Positions 9,705 to 19,808 of a stretch of 64,000 nt of DNA are shown in pieces (the first letter of the stretch is position 1; every line of letters starts with the position of its first letter). The notes below the pieces were generated by a model. The model saw nothing but the letters and a program-made list of their open reading frames with translations. It had not been told where the DNA came from and did no database searches. Made by a program: the position numbers and the translations under genes. Location of the stretch: the NCBI GenBank assembly GCA_963707025.1, contig CAVPOM010000017.1, positions 164,082 through 228,081 on the forward strand, given 5' to 3'. This DNA comes from an uncultured Verrucomicrobiae bacterium. GTDB taxonomy: Bacteria > Verrucomicrobiota > Verrucomicrobiia > Limisphaerales > Palsa-1400.

Positions 9705-11287
9705 ATGAGCCAAGGCGTTGACAAGCGGTTTTCGGCGGGCAAATCGAAACTCATCCTGGGTGTGCTCGTCTGCGGTCTGATCGGCGCGGCGTTGGCCTTC
9801 CGCATCCCCGGCGCGGGCGGGGCTGGCGTCAGCACTACCTTCAAGCTGCGCGAGGTTTCCGCTTTTGGCGTGGACAAGGACCACTTCCTCCGGGGACAAC
9901 TCTGCCGCTGCCAGGACAAGCCATTCGCGGAGGTGAAGAATTATCCCGACTTCGCCTCCAAGGCGCCCATCTTCGGGTCGGTTCGGTTTGGCGCGAAAGC
10001 GGACCAGACCAACTCCGGCTGGCTGTATTATTTTGCCGTGGATGAAAGCCGCGGCACCGGCAAAGGCTATGACCGCCTTTATTTTGACAGCAACCAGGAC
10101 TTGGACTTGCGCAATGATCCGGTGGCCAAACTCCAGCAGCATTCGCCCGATCATGCTAATGCCGTGAACTTCGGCGGCACCAAGGCGAACGTGGCCTTCG
10201 ATTTTCTGAAGGTCAACCTGGCCGGCAGCGACGGCGCCTCCAACCTGGTGGAACTCATGCCGCGCCTCCTCGTCACGGCGAGCGACACGCAAACCTACTG
10301 CTACCTGTTTTTCGTGCGCACCCGCCTTTTTGAAGGCGACATCCGCATAGGCGGCGAAAAGTTTCACGCCCAGCTCGGCAATGATTATGCCATAACACCC
10401 GGCTTCGATTCCCCCTCGACCGCCCTGGTTCTGAGCCAGGGGCGCAATACCATTGATTGGTGGGGCGGGGACCGGCAATCGGCTATTCACAAGGTGGACG
10501 GCCACTTCTACCGCCTTTCCGCCACCCCGGCCGGCGAGTTGACCGTGCATCCTTATGAGGGAGAGTTGGGAACCTTTGAAGTGGGAGCAGGCGCCCGAAA
10601 ACTGACCAATTTCAGCCTGTCCGGTTCTTTGCGCGCCAAGGATTGGGCCGTGCCGGTGGGCGGCGACATCCAAGACGGCCGGCCTGTCGAGGCCAAGCGT
10701 TGCCAGATTCCGGTGGGCGATTACCTGCCGGAGTATCTCTCCCTGCAATTCGGCCGGCTGCAAATAAATGTTTCGCAAAACTACCATTCGGAAGGCAAAC
10801 GGCAGAGCCGGGAAGGCCGGGCGGACGTTTTCGGAATGGCCGTCCGCAAGGACCAGCCGTTCGTGCTGGATTTCTCCAACAAACCCGACGTGATGTTCGC
10901 TTCCCCCGCCCCGGGTCAGCGGATCAAAGCGGGCGACACCCTCATGGTCATGGCCGTGCTGGTGGACCCGAAACTGGACATCATGATCCGCGGACTGGAC
11001 GACACTTCGCGCAAGCAGACCAAGGATGCCGAGGGCAAGCCCCTGGGCTATGAACGGACCCTGCCGCTGGATCCCACCGTGATCATCACCGGGCCGGCGG
11101 CGAGAAAGTGGCTGAGGGCGTCATGCCCTTTGGGTGAGACGGCACCTGCGGGTATTCATGGCGAGTGCCAAAAGATCTCAAACTGGACGGCCGGGCGGAA
11201 ACTTTCAACATCCAGGTGTTTTACGACACGCTGGAACTTTACGGCAAGGTCAGCGCCAGCCGCCCCGTCACGGTCTATCGCGAATGA
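9705..11287 (+). CDS. putative exported selenoprotein A (FG-U-DGTC); Sec codon 11135-11137; one-base deletion near 11090
   Basis: N-terminal TM/signal and DSNQDLD loop. Restoring one C gives ...EKVAEGVMPFG-TGA-DGTCGYSWRVP... with 49 more codons to TGA 11285; SECIS-like hairpin follows. Confidence 0.75.
11151..11169 (+). promoter_or_regulatory. candidate bacterial SECIS of gene A
   Basis: GGUAUUC-AUGGC-GAGUGCC hairpin; loop begins +21 after UGA. Confidence 0.75.
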
Positions 11288-11361
11288 ACGGGGCGCCGGG
11301 CCGCGGATCAACCAAACTTGTCGTCCGCTGGCACAAAAATTCAATGAAAGAAAGAATCCTT

Positions 11362-12153
11362 ATGATCCCAAAGTTCCATAAAGCAAACCGCGGCTTTGCC
11401 GTGGCGGCCTTCTTGCTGGCGGGCCTCGGACTGGTGACGCTGACGGACGCGCAAACCGGCGCCAATCCCGACACCACGGCCCCCGCGCAGGCAGATGGTC
11501 CGCCGCGCATTCTCGCCACCTCGCCCAAGAGCGGCGTCAACAATGTGGATCCGGCTCTGAAGGAGATCACCATCACCTTTGACCGCGACATGGAAGGCGG
11601 CATGTCCTGGACCGGAGGCGGGCCGGCCTTTCCCAAATCGCCGGAGGGGGCGAAGGCCCGTTGGCGCGACAAGCGCACCTGCGTTTTGCCCGTGACGCTC
11701 CAAACCGGCCATGACTACCGCGTCGGCATCAATTCACCCAGCTTTCAGAATTTTCGGAGCGCCGCCAGCGTGCCGGCCGCGCCCACCGCCATTGTCTTCA
11801 GGACCAGCGGCCCGAAGGTCGAAAGCAAAGCGCCTGAGATTGTCAGCCTCAACCCGGCCAATGGCGCGAGCGATGTCAGCCCGGCGCTGACCGAGTTGCG
11901 GGTCACCTTCAACATGGCCATGGGGAATGGATGTTCCTGGACGGGCGGCGGTCCCAGGTATCCCGTTATTCCTGCCGGGAAGAAAGCTTCTTGGAGCAAG
12001 GACCACAAAACTTGTGTATTGCCGGTGGAGCTGAAACCAGGCTCGTCGTATCAATTGGGCCTCAATAGCCTGTCGTACAAAGGCTTTCAGAGCGAAGACG
12101 GCGTTCCGTTGAAACCGGTGACCTACACCTTCAAAACGAGCGATGCGCCGTGA
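11362..12153 (+). CDS. secreted protein with two tandem Ig-like (Big_5-type) domains
   Basis: Signal peptide and two repeats of 'P.I....P..G...V.PAL.E...TF...M..G.SWTGGGP..P...W..D..TCVLPV.L..G..Y..G.NS'. Confidence 0.7.
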   Translation: MIPKFHKANRGFAVAAFLLAGLGLVTLTDAQTGANPDTTAPAQADGPPRILATSPKSGVNNVDPALKEITITFDRDMEGGMSWTGGGPAFPKSPEGAKARWRDKRTCVLPVTLQTGHDYRVGINSPSFQNFRSAASVPAAPTAIVFRTSGPKVESKAPEIVSLNPANGASDVSPALTELRVTFNMAMGNGCSWTGGGPRYPVIPAGKKASWSKDHKTCVLPVELKPGSSYQLGLNSLSYKGFQSEDGVPLKPVTYTFKTSDAP

Positions 12154-12190
12154 CTGTTCCGTAACGCGCTGATGCTTCCCGGGCTGCTGA

Positions 12191-13957
12191 ATGGTTGCCA
12201 TCAATGTTATGAAACCTGATCGGGCCGCCAGAACCTCCCTGATCATTCCTCGATGTTTCCAAGCAGCCGCTGCCGGAAACACCGGGGTTCTGCTGGCGTC
12301 TTTGATTTTGTTTCTCTCCGCTTGCCCGCCAGCCAAGGCCCGCGAAAGTCCACCTGCCGCCGGGGCCGCGGTTGGCGCCGCAGTTGACTTGTTGCAACGC
12401 TATCCGACCAAGTTGGCGGCGGGCGATACCAACCCGAATCAAGCCCGGTCATGGGAATTCACGGACGGCGACATCTTTCGGGTGACACAGTTTCGTCTGG
12501 CGGCGGGCAAGGAATTGCGGGTGGAGACAGGGCCCGCTGACCTGGGCATCGGCCACTGCGCGGATGGCGCCGTCTGGGCGGTGCTCATCCCGCGAGCCGG
12601 CGGAACACTGACCAGTCAAGAGAGCAACCAGGAAGCCATCGCCCATGTGTGGCTTCGGTTTCACCCGAAGGAGATCAGACACCTGTTCCCGCCGGAGACG
12701 GTGTTCGCCGGCGGAGCTGTCAACTTGTCAGCCCAGATGCGCCTCATTGCCAATGCCAAGATGACTTCAAGCTGGCAGGCCGGAGGCAGGGCCATGATTC
12801 CGGAGCCAAAGGACATGACCGTGGATGTGGATGCCAAGAATGGCTGGCGTCGGTTCTTCGCGGTGGATCAGCAGTCCCAAACGGCAGAATACGTTGACGC
12901 CTTCGCCAACCGGTCCGTCAAGCTCCCGCCGCCTCTGACGCAAGGCGCAGCCCAGGCGGCTTTTGATCAACTCTGGGAGGCATTCGATCGCGACTACGCC
13001 ATGTTCGTGCTCCGCCCGGAAGTGGATTGGGCAAAGTTGCGCGAGCAGTATCGTCCGCCGGCGCTCGCCAGCAAATCCGCCTATGAGTTGGCCGGCGTCT
13101 GCGCGGACATGCTGGCCAAGCTCCGCGACCTGCACATCTGGCTGACGGTCGCCGGCGCGCCAGTCCCGGTGTTTAACCGGCCCCGGTCAGCCAATGCCAA
13201 TCCGCGAGCCTGCCAGGCCCTTCTCGGCGGTTTCAAACAGGAAGGACGGGTGGCTTGGGCCGTCACGACCAACCACATCGGCTTCATCGCCATCTTCGGC
13301 TGGGACGATCCGAAGATTCCGGCGCAGTGCGGCGAAGCCCTGGAACAAATGCGCGCTACCCGCGGGCTGATTGTGGATGTGCGCCTGAACGGCGGTGGTG
13401 GCGAACCATTGGCCGCACGATTCGCGGGCCGTTTTCTGGAGAAGGAGTTCGTCTATGCCTTTAGCCAGTTTCGGAACGGCCCAAGCCACACGAACCTGAC
13501 GGACAAGTCCCAACGCGCCATCGCGCCGCGCGGGCCGTGGCGCTACGACCGTCCCGTCCTGTTGCTCATCGGCCAGAAGTGCATGAGCAGCGATGAATCC
13601 TTCGTCGGCATGATGACGGGCGACCCGCAGGTCACGACCATGGGCGATCACACTTGCGGCTCCAGCGGCAACCCCGAAATCGTCCGCCTGCCACTGGACA
13701 TGACGGTGAGCGTGCCGCAGTGGATTGATTACCTGCCGGACGGCACGCCGCTGGATGAGCGCGGGTTCCAACCGCAGATTCCGTTTCAGCCGGCGCCCGG
13801 CGCGTTTGAAGGCGGTCGGGACGACCTGCTCGCCGCCGCGCTGGCGCGTCTGAGTCAGGCGCCTTTGCCCGGCAAACAGATTGAAGGACCCGTGTTTGAA
13901 CCCGCGACTTCCGACCTGCCGGATCATAGCCAGGGCGTGGAGGAAGAAGCCAAGTGA
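12191..13957 (+). CDS. secreted S41 family peptidase
   Basis: FDQLWEAFDRDY (tricorn C1-like), LIVDVRLNGGG, CMSSDESF (catalytic Ser), GDHTCGSSGNP. Confidence 0.8.
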   Translation: MVAINVMKPDRAARTSLIIPRCFQAAAAGNTGVLLASLILFLSACPPAKARESPPAAGAAVGAAVDLLQRYPTKLAAGDTNPNQARSWEFTDGDIFRVTQFRLAAGKELRVETGPADLGIGHCADGAVWAVLIPRAGGTLTSQESNQEAIAHVWLRFHPKEIRHLFPPETVFAGGAVNLSAQMRLIANAKMTSSWQAGGRAMIPEPKDMTVDVDAKNGWRRFFAVDQQSQTAEYVDAFANRSVKLPPPLTQGAAQAAFDQLWEAFDRDYAMFVLRPEVDWAKLREQYRPPALASKSAYELAGVCADMLAKLRDLHIWLTVAGAPVPVFNRPRSANANPRACQALLGGFKQEGRVAWAVTTNHIGFIAIFGWDDPKIPAQCGEALEQMRATRGLIVDVRLNGGGGEPLAARFAGRFLEKEFVYAFSQFRNGPSHTNLTDKSQRAIAPRGPWRYDRPVLLLIGQKCMSSDESFVGMMTGDPQVTTMGDHTCGSSGNPEIVRLPLDMTVSVPQWIDYLPDGTPLDERGFQPQIPFQPAPGAFEGGRDDLLAAALARLSQAPLPGKQIEGPVFEPATSDLPDHSQGVEEEAK

Positions 13958-14004
13958 ACGTGCGGTGCGGCAAAAAAGCCCCCCAAGTCACCGCCAGCAG
14001 CGCG

Positions 14005-14892
14005 TTAAATTGATGACTTGTTCGTATCGCTCGGCGGCGTGTTTTGCGGCAGGGCGAAGCACGGCTCCAGGGCGCCGCAGGTGGCGCATTCCAGGCAGCG
14101 GATGCAGCCGGAGACGTTGACGGCCTGGTCCACTTTCACGCCCATCGAGCAGCGGCTGCGGCAGAGGTTGCATTCGACGCACTGCTGAGGATTGAACCGG
14201 AGATGAAACAGGCTGAATCGGTTGAAGAGCGCGAGCAGTCCGCCGAGCGGACAAAACATCCGGCACCACGGCCGGTGAATGAAAAGCGCGACGGCAAGGA
14301 ATGAAAGCAAAAGCCCGGTCTTAAAACCGCTCATGATCCACCCGTGGCCGGCCAGCAGGCTTTGCACCGAGTAAGGCACGCCCGCTTCCAGCGCGCCCGC
14401 CGGACAAAGCCGGCAGATGGACACCACCTGCTTCTCAAACGGAATGCCTTTGTAACCCAAAATCAGCGGCAAAAGAATCACCAGCCCGCCCAGAACCACG
14501 TAACGGATGCTGCCGGTCCAGGACGGCAGGTTGATTTTCCGAGTTGTGATTTTGCCAAGCAAGTCCTGGAGAAAACCGAACGGACAAGCCCAGCCGCAGA
14601 CGATGGAACCGCCCACCGCGCCAACCAGCAGCAGCACGCCGATCAACAAATACGGCGCTTCCCCAACCACCGGCAGCAGCGCCGCGTAGTTCGCCATCAC
14701 CCCTATCGGGCAGGCGAAAGCCGACAGCGGGCACGAGTAGCAGTGGAACACGCAGCCGGGAATGCCATGCAGCCATTGGCCCGCCGGCGCCAGCCACACC
14801 CCCAGAAAACCGGTTTGCACCCAGGGACGGACGCGGGCAAGCATCCGCCCTCGAGCGGCGGCCTGGGGCAATGCTGGTGGCTGATGGCTCAT
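14005..14892 (-). CDS. membrane-bound 4Fe-4S binding protein (NapH/MauN/YccM-like)
   Basis: TM helices with CYSCP..ACPIG, CGWACPFG, CRLCPAG, CRMFCPLG and ferredoxin motifs CVECNLCRSRC, CIRCLEC. Confidence 0.85.
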   Translation of the reverse strand: MSHQPPALPQAAARGRMLARVRPWVQTGFLGVWLAPAGQWLHGIPGCVFHCYSCPLSAFACPIGVMANYAALLPVVGEAPYLLIGVLLLVGAVGGSIVCGWACPFGFLQDLLGKITTRKINLPSWTGSIRYVVLGGLVILLPLILGYKGIPFEKQVVSICRLCPAGALEAGVPYSVQSLLAGHGWIMSGFKTGLLLSFLAVALFIHRPWCRMFCPLGGLLALFNRFSLFHLRFNPQQCVECNLCRSRCSMGVKVDQAVNVSGCIRCLECATCGALEPCFALPQNTPPSDTNKSSI

Positions 14893-14902
14893 GGATTAAG
14901 AG

Positions 14903-15430
14903 GGCTGAAGGCTGAAGGCTAAAGGCTGAAACATGGGGGTTGTGGGAAAAATCTTCATGAATTTAGCTTTTTGCGCAGCCTTTGGCCGTTTTATCAACGC
15001 TTGTGAAAATTGCGATGAGTTGGCGCGTTTCCTCGAGCAAGCCGGCCATCCGGGCTTGCGTGACACAACCGCCTTCCACCAGCAGTCCGAGCCAATACTC
15101 GGTTTCTTCGATTTCCTTGAGACAGTCTCCAACCTTGGAAATAAACTCGGCTTTCGACCGTCCGCGCGAAGCCTCGCGATAATTCGCCCCGACCGAAGTT
15201 CCCGAACGAAGCACCTGCTTGCCCAGCACTTGCGCAACCGTGCTGGACTTGGGCAACTTGGAATACAAATGAATGATCCGAAGCGCGAACGCCTTCGTTC
15301 TCGGTTTCAAATCTTGCGGCTCATCACTCATAATGCAAACGACAGATTTCACATTCAAATTCAAACTTATCTCAAAAACGCAGCCGATTTTAGCCTTCAA
15401 CCTTTAGCCTTCAGCCTTTAGCCTTTAGCC
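14903..15430. repeat. inverted heptamer arrays (GGCTRAA)x4 and (TTYARCC)x6 flanking the four-helix-bundle gene
   Basis: 14903-14930 and 15389-15430 are mutually reverse-complementary tandem arrays. Confidence 0.85.
14963..15331 (-). CDS. four helix bundle protein (23S rRNA IVP-like family)
   Basis: RTKAFALRII...QVLRSGTSVGANYREA.RGRSKAEFISK...E.EETEYWL. Confidence 0.9.
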   Translation of the reverse strand: MSDEPQDLKPRTKAFALRIIHLYSKLPKSSTVAQVLGKQVLRSGTSVGANYREASRGRSKAEFISKVGDCLKEIEETEYWLGLLVEGGCVTQARMAGLLEETRQLIAIFTSVDKTAKGCAKS

Positions 15431-15438
15431 TTTCTAAT

Positions 15439-15457
15439 CGGCCACGCCATGCGGCCG
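15439..15457 (-). promoter_or_regulatory. candidate SECIS of gene D, located in the 3' UTR
   Basis: CGGCCGC-AUGGC-GUGGCCG; loop begins +21 after UGA. Confidence 0.75.
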
Positions 15458-15461
15458 GGGT

Positions 15462-15836
15462 TTATTTCATTCAAGTGGGACAGGGTGTTTTTGCGCTCGT
15501 GTTTACGCGGATTTTCCACGCCGGCGGCCGGTAATTGGCCTGTTGTTTGGCCCAGCGGTCCAGCGCCTCGCCCGGATTGGCCACGTTATCCAATTTGGGC
15601 GGCGGTGGCGGCGCAACCTGGTCCGGGTATTGCAGGCCGCTGGAGGAGAAGGCCGTGACCAACTGCGTTTCCCACGCGGTGTTGCCGTCCACCGTGTCCA
15701 CCTTGGTCAGATGCCGCGCGCCGCAAAAAACCACCACCGCGCCGGTCAGCGCCACGACGAATCCGCCCCAGAAATCGTGGCCTTCCCGCGCGCGCAACGC
15801 GCGGTTGACCGGTGGCTGTGGGACTCGTTTGAACAT
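15462..15836 (-). CDS. putative membrane-anchored selenoprotein D with C-terminal CxxU (CPTU-MK-stop); Sec codon 15471-15473
   Basis: One TM (FWGGFVVALTGAVVVFCGA); ends TGT CCC ACT TGA ATG AAA TAA; starts 25 nt after tRNA-Sec; SECIS-like hairpin follows. Confidence 0.75.
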
Positions 15837-15860
15837 GCTAAAGGGGTGGAGGGGGCAAAT

Positions 15861-15957
15861 TGGCGGAGGTGGATGGGAATCGAACCCACCTGGGACTTTG
15901 TTGAGCCCCACACTGGTTTTGAAGACCAGGAGCGCCACCAGGCCGCCCCACACCTCC
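15861..15957 (-). tRNA. selC: tRNA-Sec (anticodon UCA)
   Basis: GGAGGTG...CTGGTCTTCAAAACCAG, long variable arm, GGTTCGATTCC, ...CACCTCCGCCA; 97 nt with encoded CCA. Confidence 0.95.
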
Positions 15958-16271
15958 GCACCGGGTCGCTGCGCCGCCGGCCGATGGCAGGCGTGATTTA
16001 TTTCCGGTGGGCTTCCTCATACACCTATTGTGACAGGTTTGGCCGATACTTCAATGCGAATAAATTACATCGGCCAATCAACGTCTGTCATCCTGCCGCC
16101 CAAGCCCGCCACAATCAGGCCAAACACCAAAAGTATGTATCCGACAGTCGCCATCCCTTCGTAAATTAAACCATGCCGATCAACATGCTGCTCGTGAAAC
16201 TCAACCCGGCCGCTAGCGCGATCACTTCGCCAGTTTTTTGATCTCCGCCTCCAGTTCGTCGAGGGCAAAAT

Positions 16272-17540
16272 CTAAGTTCTTGGTTTGAGCATCAGCGGAC
16301 TGGTCTCCACCTGGAACGGGCTGACAATTTTGACGCTGCCAGTCAACGGACGCTGCGTATTTTTGGGCTCCCGCCATGAGAGCGAACAAACGCCGCCTCA
16401 TCCAAACTCGAAAGTGCTGGAAAAAACCAGGGTTCCAGTGGTGCTGGCCAGCACCAGTTTTGGCCCCTGCGGGCGCTGCCCGCCGCGCAGCATTTCTATG
16501 GATTCCTCCTGCCGGCCCACAAATTGGAGACTAAAGTTGATCTGGCGGTCGGCCCCCTCCGCCGCCTTGAGCACGGCTTGCACCGGCTCGCCGATTTTGA
16601 GCAAGGCGGTCTTGTCGGCGGCGACCTGGAAGCCGGCGGTTTTTGGAAAACCAGAGCCGGACAGCGTCCAGGCCGCCCCTTTTTCATCCTTGCGGTTGAT
16701 CGTCCAGCGGACGACCCGGTAATGGCCGGCCGGCAAGGTGACTTCGCCGTTGACCGGTTTGCGCACGAAATGGCCGTTCTCACCGAAAACGACCAGTTCG
16801 GAAATGTTTTCCGGCACGCGCACCTGGCCGAGCGTGACGTCCTCCGCCTTTTGCACCTTGACAAACGCGCCGTCGCGGGCCACTTCGATCCGGTAAAGCT
16901 TGCCGTTGACTTCCAGCATCCGGCCCAAGAAATGTTCGCTGGTCTGGTCGCCCTCGATCTGGACTCGGTCGCTGTCATAGGCATCGGCGCCGACGTCGTT
17001 GAACGTGCCATTGACGTTGCCGTCAATCAGTTGGAGGCGCTTTTTCACGCCGTCGAAGTTCACCATCCCTTCATACCAGCCGGCGGAGGAGGCCAGCAAT
17101 TCCGCGGGGCCGGTTGCGGATTCATAAAGCCGGAACTCCAGATGATAGGTGATCGGCCCGTCCCCGCCCTTGAAAACCAGGCGGGCCGGCGGAAATTCGG
17201 CGTTGGGATTGGCCCGCGCTTGGAGAGGCGTTTTGTCGTCCAGCCGGCCATTGCCGTTGCTGTCAATGAAGAGCCGGTCATACGGCCCGCCCTTGCGCGA
17301 GCGGTCCAGGCAAACCCAGCGCCCGCCGCTGGGATCCATCGGCGTCACCCAGCGCGCGAAATAGGGCGCGGCGTTCAGCTTGGGCAGGGCGACGCCGGGC
17401 GGCGGATTGGTGGTCAGGTCCAATTGGTGGTAGGCCTGGCCCTGCGCCCCGGTGTGGTATTGCAGCCTTTGCTCCGTTTGCGCCCAGGCGCTGCCGGCCA
17501 GAACCATTCCGGCCAGAATCAATTGTTTGGAAAATTTCAT
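16272..17540 (-). CDS. putative exported selenoprotein B (FG-U-GGVC); Sec codon 16398-16400
   Basis: Signal peptide; DSNGNGRLDD and DGNVNG loops; ...STFEFG-TGA-GGVCSLSWREP... with 41 more codons to TAG. Confidence 0.8.
16367..16383 (-). promoter_or_regulatory. candidate SECIS of gene B
   Basis: GCUCUC-AUGGC-GGGAGC; loop begins +21 after UGA. Confidence 0.75.
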
Positions 17541-17571
17541 AAGGTCGCGGTTGATTTTTTCTTCCTCAAAT

Positions 17572-19680
17572 TCAAGTTTTCAGACTGGCCTCCAGCAATG
17601 GCGCCCTCACCGGCGGCAACTCCGGCTTCACGTGCAGCAGCGATTTGAGCCGTTCGCGGTAAAATGGACTGGCCGACGACAGGATCAAGAACGGCAGCAG
17701 CACCGCGAAATGGAAGGCCGCCACCAGGAGAACGGGAGCAAACAATACGCTCCAGTCAATCCGCCCGCTTGAGCCTATCATCTCTATTAAAAAGAAAGGC
17801 AAGCCGATCAGCACCCAGAGAACGGCCGGCAGGACGAGCAGCCAGATATAAAGTCCGAGCGGACGGTAACGACCGCGGCAAATCAGGCCGGCAAGACTCA
17901 GCGCCACCGAACTGACCAGAACGCACAGGGCCAGCGCCACGGCGACTGGAAACGCTTCGTCCGTGGAACTCCAGTCTTGCCGCGCGACAAAGGCCAGCCC
18001 GCTGAAACCCGTCAAGACGGACAGGATGCACAGAAAAGTGACGAACCGATGTTGCCGCCGCAGATAATTTGACAGAAGCCAGACTGCGGCCAGACCAACC
18101 GCCAGCGCGGCGATGACATCCAGGAAAAAATTCGTTCCCGGTGGCAGGATGTCCGGCGGCGCCAGGGTCAGCGCGATCAGGCATCCGAGCGGCAGCCAGA
18201 TCAACCACGCGGCGCCACAACGATTGGGTTTGAAGGCGAGCAACCCCAGGATGGCCAGCCACGGCAGCAACAGCGGCGCAAAACCGGGCAGCACCCAGTC
18301 GTAGGCGACCTGCGGCCCTTCCTTCGCGCCCAGCGCACCGAGGTCCGACGAAGCCACAATGGCCAGTTTGCCGCCGGCGGTGAGAGGCACTCGCCACGAG
18401 TGCGAACAGGTCCCGCCTCAGCCAAACTCAAAATCGCCCGTCGCAATTTTCTTTTCCCCGCAGTAAATCGCGAAGGCCGGCGGCTTGGAGCGGTCTTGCG
18501 CCGCCATTTGGTAAGATTCGCGGCCCGCGCCCACCAGGAGATAATCCAGCCGCAAATCCTGCCCGTGGCGGCTGGCGCTGACGGTATTGGTCAACGGCCC
18601 GCCCACGTTCAACACCAGCGGGGTCTTGCCGTCCACCGCCATTTGCCCGAGGCTCTGCGTCTGGTTGGCACTGCGGAAGGCCGCGGCCCCGTTTTTTTCG
18701 AGCTGGATCTCAAGCTGGTTGTAGCTGCCGGTCGGAATTTTGACCAGGCCTGCCGGCTGATCGAGCATCACCAGATACGGCCCGCCGCTCAGAACCAGGC
18801 GGCCGATCAATTGGCCGGTGATTTTCACTTCGCCCAGCGCGACGGATTGCTCGGTGAATTGGAGCGTCGGCCTGGCTTCGCCGTTTTCCGAACCTGCGGT
18901 CCACTCCAGTTGATAGGCGTGGCCATCCACGAAAACTTTCCGCGAAGGGGGAACAGGAACACTGGCGAGCAAACCGTCGCCCGCGTTGAACGCCTGGGCT
19001 CGCTTTTCCCAGGGGCGCAGCAGCAACCGGCTGTTCTGCAACAAGCCCGACGGGCCCCAGATATTTTGCACGATGCCCACCTGCCAGTCCCGCCCTTGCA
19101 AGGTCATTTTGCCTTGCCAGAACGAGCGCACCGCCGCGGAACAGACAAGTTGCGAAGGCGGACCATAGTCATAGAAGTTGAGGTCCGCCAGCACCCGCCA
19201 CCTGCCGGCAGGGGTGTTGAAAAGCAGGTGGACGTTCGTGAAGCCCTGATAATTTGCCGGCCCCGTCGCGCCGGCCAAAAACACGCCGGAGGGATCGTCG
19301 GTCAAATCCTGGTTGCGATTGAGGTCCAGGTAAAGTTTGCGCGCGTCGCGCTGCCAGAGAAAGGCAATGGCATTGCCCGCATCGCCCGCGAAATTCAAAG
19401 CGCCGCGAGCGATTTTGCCCGAAAGCGCCGCCGGCTCCTTTTTGAAAGGCATGGATTGCGTCCCCAGGCCAACGCCCCAGTTGTTGACGCTATAGGCTGT
19501 TTCCTGATATTCCAGCGAAGCCACCGTCGCGTTTGAGGAGGGGGAACCGGCCGGCGCGCCCTCCGCCGCGAGAAGAACAGCTCCCGGCCAAAATACCGCC
19601 ATCAGCGTCCACGTCAGCCGGGCCACCCGGACGTTTCCAAGGCACCGCCAAGATAAACCATCAGTCCTTTGCTTTGCCAT
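17572..19680 (-). CDS. putative selenoprotein C (FG-U-GGTC): exported domain fused through Sec to a multi-pass membrane domain; Sec codon 18418-18420
   Basis: ORFs 18418-19698 and 17572-18390 are in one frame separated only by the TGA: ...GDFEFG-TGA-GGTCSHSWRVPLTAGG... Confidence 0.82.
18387..18403 (-). promoter_or_regulatory. candidate SECIS of gene C
   Basis: GCACUC-GUGGC-GAGUGC perfect stem; loop begins +21 after UGA. Confidence 0.78.
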
Positions 19681-19808
19681 TAGACATTTCATTAGCACAT
19701 CTAAACACCTGTTTCAACAGAAATCTGTAAATATAAAAATCTGTAATGGTCCAAAGTGTTCGCCGATCCAGAATCGAAGGTGTAAAAGTTTTGGTTCGGC
19801 CTTGCTTC

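Follow-up and report, generated by a model that had tools for sequence, protein, structure and literature searches.

A variant-loop hairpin at four UGA codons is probably the selenocysteine signal of an uncatalogued verrucomicrobial protein cassette

How are four UGA codons to be read when each is followed, at the same distance, by a small hairpin with the loop RUGGC? The question is raised by a stretch of 64,000 nucleotides (the window; contig CAVPOM010000017.1, positions 164,082 to 228,081) from an uncultured Verrucomicrobiae bacterium, assembly GCA_963707025.1, in which the codons belong to genes here called A, B, C and D. The reading that we favour, with a probability of about 0.9, is that the hairpin is a bacterial selenocysteine insertion sequence (SECIS) serving a cassette of uncatalogued proteins; two uncatalogued selenoprotein families are then marked by a variant-loop SECIS. 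SECIS elements, including those behind a stop codon, are already known, and the novelty lies in the variant loop, in the evidence from codons and in the nearly dedicated selenocysteine (Sec) machinery. The features concerned are listed here, U being the residue at the UGA.

9705..11287, + strand: gene A; hydrophobic N-terminal segment, G-U-D-G-T-C motif, 49 residues past U
11135..11169, + strand: UGA A (11135-11137) and candidate SECIS A; stem 11151-11157/11163-11169, loop AUGGC 11158-11162
14005..14892, - strand: NapH/MauN-like membrane 4Fe-4S protein; Fer4_5, under the NCBIfam cut-offs; downstream of D
15439..15473, - strand: UGA D (15473-15471), stop TAA (15464-15462) and non-coding candidate SECIS D; 7-bp stem 15457-15451/15445-15439, loop AUGGC
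15462..15836, - strand: gene D; 124 aa, single hydrophobic segment, C-terminal C-P-T-U-M-K, start about 24 nt past selC
15861..15957, - strand: selC, tRNA-Sec; anticodon UCA, G discriminator, encoded CCA; RF01852, 72.9 bits
16272..17540, - strand: gene B; 422 aa, signal-peptide-like N-terminus, U381 in G-U-G-G-V-C, 41 residues past U
16367..16400, - strand: UGA B (16400-16398) and candidate SECIS B; 6-bp stem 16383-16378/16372-16367, loop AUGGC; kept in relatives
17572..19698, - strand: gene C; about 708 aa, U427 in G-U-G-G-T-C
18387..18420, - strand: UGA C (18420-18418) and candidate SECIS C; 6-bp stem 18403-18398/18392-18387, loop GUGGC

The hairpins are present as the preliminary description of this DNA had them: at A-D the five-nucleotide loop starts at +21 after the UGA, behind a spacer of 13-14 nt and on a stem of 6-7 bp closed by C-G. 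In SECIS C a G-C pair is able to close a UGG triloop. Gene D reads C-P-T-U-M-K-stop, and because its TAA lies at +7..+9 the hairpin is non-coding; the copy is also conserved, so the claim of a hairpin beyond the true UAA stop holds. The TGA stops named as controls (11287, 12153, 13957 and 57123) do indeed lack it. The notion of four UGAs sharing a signal has to be qualified, for although each has the hairpin, the paralogy of A, B and C reduces the four to two independent families, and the equal spacing among these three is partly homology. The proteins of A-D have no Pfam match at E 0.001 and, at E 0.1, no NCBIfam match either, apart from one to CrcB (weak, E 0.057) within the 281-residue, mostly hydrophobic and membrane-like tail that read-through adds to gene C. 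Compared with the Atlas, gene B met unnamed clusters only and gene D none above 0.81.

The association of the motif with TGA is selective. TGA-N20-RTGGC occurs at nine sites in the window, and only A-D fold as the hairpin. Among 65 C-RTGGC-G hairpins in the genome with a stem of at least 6 bp, TGA stands at +21 in six (0.91 expected per offset), TAA in one (0.30 expected) and TAG in none (0.19); the scan that had been proposed thus finds that the motif is not equally common after TAA or TAG. The six TGAs are A-D and two paralogs on contig C11, all of them Cys-partnered read-through sites; with stems of at least 5 bp the TGA count is 10, four being non-coding or out-of-frame matches. Counted at likely gene-end stops, the motif stands behind 3 of 2733 TGA, 0 of 1071 TAG and 0 of 1599 TAA codons, a count whose coding filter overlooked three of the six sites (A, D and one on C11). 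A covariance model, trained on these same sequences and with 150 of 3333 candidates scored, gave no seventh site in the source genome, which is 88% complete (next match E 0.028); its weak matches in other genomes were rejected, as they are not coding read-through sites. A coding-potential scan for read-through TGAs returned 121 candidates, mostly ordinary gene junctions, with no recognisable classical selenoprotein, the check for neighbouring Cys covering the matches listed.

The host encodes the machinery for Sec. The tRNA-Sec gene lies directly upstream of D and is the sole tRNA with a UCA anticodon among 77 called in the genome; selA, selB and selD form an operon on contig C12. Among 61 genomes the A/B/C family occurs in 11 and D in 11 (plus one weak, unrelated match), both together in 10; tRNA-Sec is present in all 11 with the A/B/C family, and selC adjoins D at 10 of 11 loci. 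In three genomes (G008, G016 and G024) selA and D share a contig, and at one distant metagenome locus selD, selB, a D-type gene, a 4Fe-4S gene and an A/B/C-type gene are consecutive. Relatives and one distant locus likewise have a Fer4_5 gene after the D-type gene. Those relatives that bear a name are metagenome-assembled genomes of Verrucomicrobiota subdivision 3.

The read-through is coding. All 120 homologs of gene B among the matches listed end at the Gly before the UGA, as do 126 of the 150 best-matching among 2368 cluster representatives, and homologs without the UGA align across the site. The domain model of C, a second fold (the first was poor after U), is an Ig-like beta-sandwich with pLDDT 89.8, in which U86 sits in the turn between strands 75-81 and 90-95, with Cys90 and Trp94 on the second strand; structure matches to it are generic Ig-like folds, none at E 0.001.

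Covariation and codon usage point to the RNA as the object of selection. Across 31 chosen sequences, which like all those counted are related, so that the counts overstate independence, 185 of 186 cells are paired, with 48 double changes at three of the six pairs, compared with 27-55% in slid controls; over 167 family sites 97.9% of stem pairs hold, against 26-66% when slid. The metagenome sample was selected with a pattern ending before the stem, that is, without using the hairpin, and gave at least 123 distinct sites from at least 124 loci. Among the matches listed, to which the codon counts also refer, 110 have an open upstream frame, 96 of these with a stem of at least 5 bp, and the loops include GTGGC 50 times and ATGGC 42 times. 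Ser of the peptide S-W-R is TCA or TCG at 91 of 91 sites (30% in upstream codons) and Arg is CGA at 82 of 91 (background 10%). Codons occur in couples, TAC with GTA 43 times and with GTG nine times, CAC with GTG 18 times and with GTA never; residues, too, vary as pairing couples with the stem kept (H/V, Y/V, L/E, L-W-Q/K, A-W-R, T-W-R, R-W-P). To judge from these sequences, the hairpin is selected as RNA. The suggestion that the 'SWR' peptide is partly a by-product of the RNA signal is thereby borne out for Ser, Arg and the flanks, which are mostly RNA-imposed, and only in part for Trp. Of 19 homologs that lack the UGA and have a located motif, 18 keep the Trp (in two of 21 the motif was not located, and the search pattern favoured Trp), while their Ser and Arg vary; as it also lies in a beta-strand of the model, Trp serves RNA and protein both.

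The copy at D removes the peptide from the comparison. In the D family of the window the hairpin is kept behind the stop while four bases past the stop vary, and across 11 genomes the loop starts at +21 in nine and at +20 in two. A wider set of 26 short-tail C-x-x-U candidates, five of them dropped as chance, left 21 D-type sites, homology to D having been compared for one alone of the distant ones (23% identity). Stem and central loop G are kept at 21 of 21, with loops starting at +20 (4), +21 (10), +22 (2), +23 (3) and +25 (2, one by eye) and reading ATGGC, GTGGC, ACGGC, GCGGC, GTGTC, GCGTC, GAGGT, ATGGT, GGGTC or CGGTG. The non-coding copy covaries, with G·U, A-U and G-C at one position, and no U-run follows it. 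An RUGGC loop at exactly +21 is therefore right for A-D and locally limited; given the variation in spacer and loop word, the core is a 6-7 bp stem with a loosely closed triloop and a central G. A search by the pattern C-P-x-U was tried and proved too unspecific to use.

Loop words also differ between genomes. Eight of 300 other members of the phylum that were searched have the family, five of them with GGGTC, CGGGC or CGGCG loops and the peptide S-G-R, L-G-Q or S-G-G, so that Trp becomes Gly where the loop is of the GGU type. In G359 and G122 the GGU loop is also found in the non-coding D-type copy, and as both belong to one family the switch counts as one event; in G209 and G036 both families carry N-G-K loops. 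Placed in a tree, 20 SelB proteins (that of G036 not included) do not sort by loop class, and no residue of SelB discriminating between the classes was seen by eye. The 'lineage-specific' character of bacterial SECIS thus did not map onto SelB clades here, and a SelB-driven switch of loop class is suggested at most.

The bacterial SECIS consensus after Zhang and Gladyshev, as restated in PMC13188914, has an apical loop of 3-9 nt with G within its first two positions, an upper stem of 4-16 bp, 16-37 nt from UGA to loop, and a minimum free energy of -7.5 kcal/mol or lower. Here the loop has 5 nt (3 in C) and the stem 6-7 bp; the spacing is 20 nt in A-D and 19-24 nt in D-type homologs; +9..+40 folds with -9.3 (A), -8.4 (B), -10.3 (C) and -13.6 (D) kcal/mol, all beyond the limit. 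Compensatory changes are found, and selA, selB, selC and selD are all there, frameshifted in this assembly and intact in relatives. With the archetype of the consensus, the formate dehydrogenase genes of E. coli, A-D share a single hairpin just 3' of the UGA, its spacing and stem length, a G in the loop and a host with selA/B/C/D; they differ in that the AUGGC loop of A, B and D fits only via A·C and in that the clients are uncatalogued proteins and not formate dehydrogenase or SelD. The loop-G rule is obeyed by C, whose G-C closes UGG, and by A, B and D only if A·C counts as a closing pair. The first and last loop bases at 157 sites are AC 82, GC 63, AA 4, CG 3, AG 3 and CC 2 times, and the third is G in 156 of 157. 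The same text states that further SECIS classes must exist, and BSepDB (PMC13326102) finds canonical SECIS in 87.4% of catalogued bacterial selenoprotein genes, about one in eight being without.

Several observations weigh against a working SECIS. Under strict pairing the first G of AUGGC in A, B and D is at loop position 3, and the rule fails. Folded together with the UGA and spacer, A favours a different structure (closing pair P 0.01), and B and C give the hairpin in a 50-nt window only and not in one of 40 nt, a caveat that would vanish along with the competing folds if the ribosome holds the spacer open. Only three of 21 homologs running through the site have Cys there (the rest have Gly, Ser, Leu, Thr and further residues), which makes the customary Cys/Sec argument a weak one, and the relatedness of the counted sequences was mentioned above. 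Finally, selA, selB and selD hold, within about 5 kb, four of the seven frame changes in 39 sampled genes, the other 36 or so having three, and a transposase-like open reading frame, its translation read by eye, lies between an activator gene and selA, so that the system may be dead in this strain.

The last point leads to the alternative that the SECIS is valid for the family, with the system decaying in this strain and its hairpins unused, which we hold to be unlikely. It can draw on one further frame change in the methyltransferase gene upstream of selABD and on gene A, whose frame breaks near 11090 with one base fewer than in G003 and leaves the UGA out of frame with the upstream open reading frame, the sequencing runs listed comprising no RNA run and a single DNA run, which gives no cover at the break. 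Its ortholog in G003 is intact, with the same hairpin apart from one C for T change; that in G021 has an in-frame TAG upstream of the UGA. In G003 and G008, moreover, gene B is followed by a gene for an 1100-aa CarboxypepD-repeat protein, of which about 3.25 kb is lacking at window 16110-16273 (- strand), where just the last ~17 codons are left. Yet indel errors are real in this assembly, for a gene that we name EF-Tu from its translation (G000:C6:405000-406500) has several frameshifts and a purL-like gene has one, while tRNA-Sec, six hairpins and genes B, C and D are intact.

Two other explanations dispute the signal itself. A hairpin that arises as a by-product from a conserved peptide xSWRxP, with the D copy a coincidence or an ordinary 3' end structure, would suit the paralogy of A, B and C, the survival of Trp without the UGA and a Trp codon that fixes UGG; the synonymous-codon test, however, already largely refutes this idea, the amino acids vary in couples that preserve base pairing, and a non-coding copy that covaries, occurs at 21 D-type sites and lacks a following U-run makes it the least credible of all. 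It is scarcely more probable that the UGA is read as another residue, as Cys via tRNA-ReC/SelC* or as Trp or Gly via a changed code. There are precedents in UGA-to-Trp codes of Verrucomicrobiota (PMC13462651) and in tRNA-ReC, which decodes a SECIS-flagged UGA as Cys (PMC13582414), and in homologs the site is indeed occupied by Gly, Ser, Leu, Thr or Cys. A single base, however, separates TGA from codons for Gly, Ser, Leu and Cys, as expected on loss of Sec; TGA is the commonest gene-end stop (2733 sites); the lone tRNA with a UCA anticodon is of the canonical tRNA-Sec type; and in relatives the cassette is linked to selA and selD. ARAGORN called three tRNA-Cys, each of 75 nt, and the signature of tRNA-ReC/SelC*, an extra non-canonical tRNA-Cys or a second UCA tRNA, was not found in the 88% complete genome.

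If the hairpin is a SECIS, a ribosome at the UGA would hold the spacer of about 13 nt unfolded, leaving a stem of 6-7 bp capped by an N-G-G triloop, which would in turn be closed by a flexible pair of purine and pyrimidine (G-C or A·C). By analogy with known SelB biology, SelB carrying Sec-tRNA made from the neighbouring selC would bind this cap and deliver selenocysteine. In A, B and C the hairpin overlaps the reading frame and sets the codons and several residues of x-S-W-R-x, and in D it would act from behind the true stop. The cassette served would consist of exported Ig-like proteins with U-x-x-x-C on a beta-hairpin, the membrane-anchored C-x-x-U protein D and the NapH-like 4Fe-4S protein. 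As to their job, a tentative guess, rather doubtful than probable, is that they form a redox relay in which electrons pass from the membrane 4Fe-4S protein by way of the C-x-x-U of D to the exported U-x-x-x-C proteins.

The cassette proteins seem to be nearly the sole clients of this Sec machinery. In the source genome SelD has Cys, the molybdopterin matches have no stop, and no UGA was found in SelD, molybdopterin, MvhD, NiFe-hydrogenase or the listed AhpC-TSA matches; the check that had been proposed, on selD and formate dehydrogenase, therefore does not apply here, neither having a UGA. The search for classical selenoproteins in cassette genomes covered five families. Within 17-18 such genomes no TGA was found in molybdopterin (24 rows), MvhD (17 rows) or NiFe-hydrogenase matches, nor in SelD of five genomes, and AhpC-TSA had one TGA among the 150 rows listed of 163. 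The single exception is a TlpA-like W-U-M-P-C (U-x-x-C) candidate at a contig end (L292:175, G024:C93), with C-AUGG-U at +18..+23 on an irregular stem.

Classical Sec systems of the same order (G009, G034, G050, G055 and G059) share the selA/B/D cluster and a UGA followed by a G-loop hairpin. Their SelB, placed for G009, G034, G055 and G059, forms a separate clade and their hairpins are unrelated, with a GUU loop at +34 in the selenoprotein SelD and, in two other genes, GGUC at +32 and GGU at +18. The gene with GGUC is presumably TlpA-like and that with GGU deiodinase-like. A SECIS behind a true stop is described in bioRxiv 2022.07.06.499078 for SaoC, with a GGU loop near +18, and Table 1 of PMC13188914 lists the 'UXX-star' architecture. 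D shares with both a U few residues from the C-terminus, a non-coding hairpin and a 7-bp stem with a triloop; it differs from SaoC in having an N-G-G loop at +20 to +23 and has no match to the SaoC and UXX-star NCBIfam models. Clustering of several unrelated selenoprotein genes is likewise shared with the SAO and Tso operons (PMC13188914), but the families differ, the cassette here also holds selC and in several genomes selABD, and its clients look exported or membrane-bound. Table 1 of PMC13188914 includes no U-x-x-x-C family, and the motif and families are not described among the literature matches listed, a search whose scope leaves aside most subscription papers and the online family list and supplements of BSepDB. 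NF049953 (G-U-x-G) was considered as the family and rejected as unrelated, without a match at these loci.

A wider proposal comes close to an even chance: that uncultured Verrucomicrobiota and Planctomycetota keep a dedicated Sec system almost only for this exported cassette, whose very large, nearly Sec-only family of 2368 clusters (50% identity) has been missed so far, and that within one genome the loop word switches together across unrelated genes, with Trp becoming Gly. The family would have been missed because Cys homologs are few and the commonest loop, AUGGC, breaks the consensus. If true, this is a natural experiment in which SelB-RNA co-adaptation overrides protein sequence (N-G-G as opposed to G-G-U, the non-coding copy included). 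The hairpin would in any case be a well-aligned example of a SECIS class outside the canonical consensus, and one where a signal in the mRNA governs the choice of synonymous codons and makes amino acids change in pairs. As its coding and non-coding versions are adjacent, the demands of the RNA can be told apart from constraint on the protein. A loop rule relaxed to an N-G-K triloop closed by R·Y would bring in a family most of whose entries in databases stop at the UGA, and the locus points to an uncharacterised selenium-dependent system in bacteria of soil, peat and sediment.

Some minor observations concern the surroundings. A further candidate selenoprotein type has C-x-x-U followed by a Gly-rich G-Y-L/F-G-E-V and a CGGUG loop at +21 (L146:5372, L153:431, L081:952 and L281:7280); it has the look of a remote variant of the Ig-like domain described above. 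SelD (G000:C12:68233-69849; L057:6417-8024) combines its active-site Cys with a Cys-rich N-terminal extension and a C-terminal CMD/AhpD domain. Upstream of selABD several relatives have genes for a double-cubane reductase, a methyltransferase and an activator ATPase and two dehydratase-like genes (L054:3104-8472; G000:C12:56681-61812). Gene A is followed by genes for a Big_5 two-domain protein and an S41 peptidase (window 11362-13957, + strand), both of which have an ordinary TGA as stop, with no such hairpin behind it. A 23S rRNA IVP / four-helix-bundle gene (window 14963-15400, - strand), flanked by AAAGGCTGAAGGC-like repeats, separates D from the 4Fe-4S gene; in several relatives D and the 4Fe-4S gene are adjacent.

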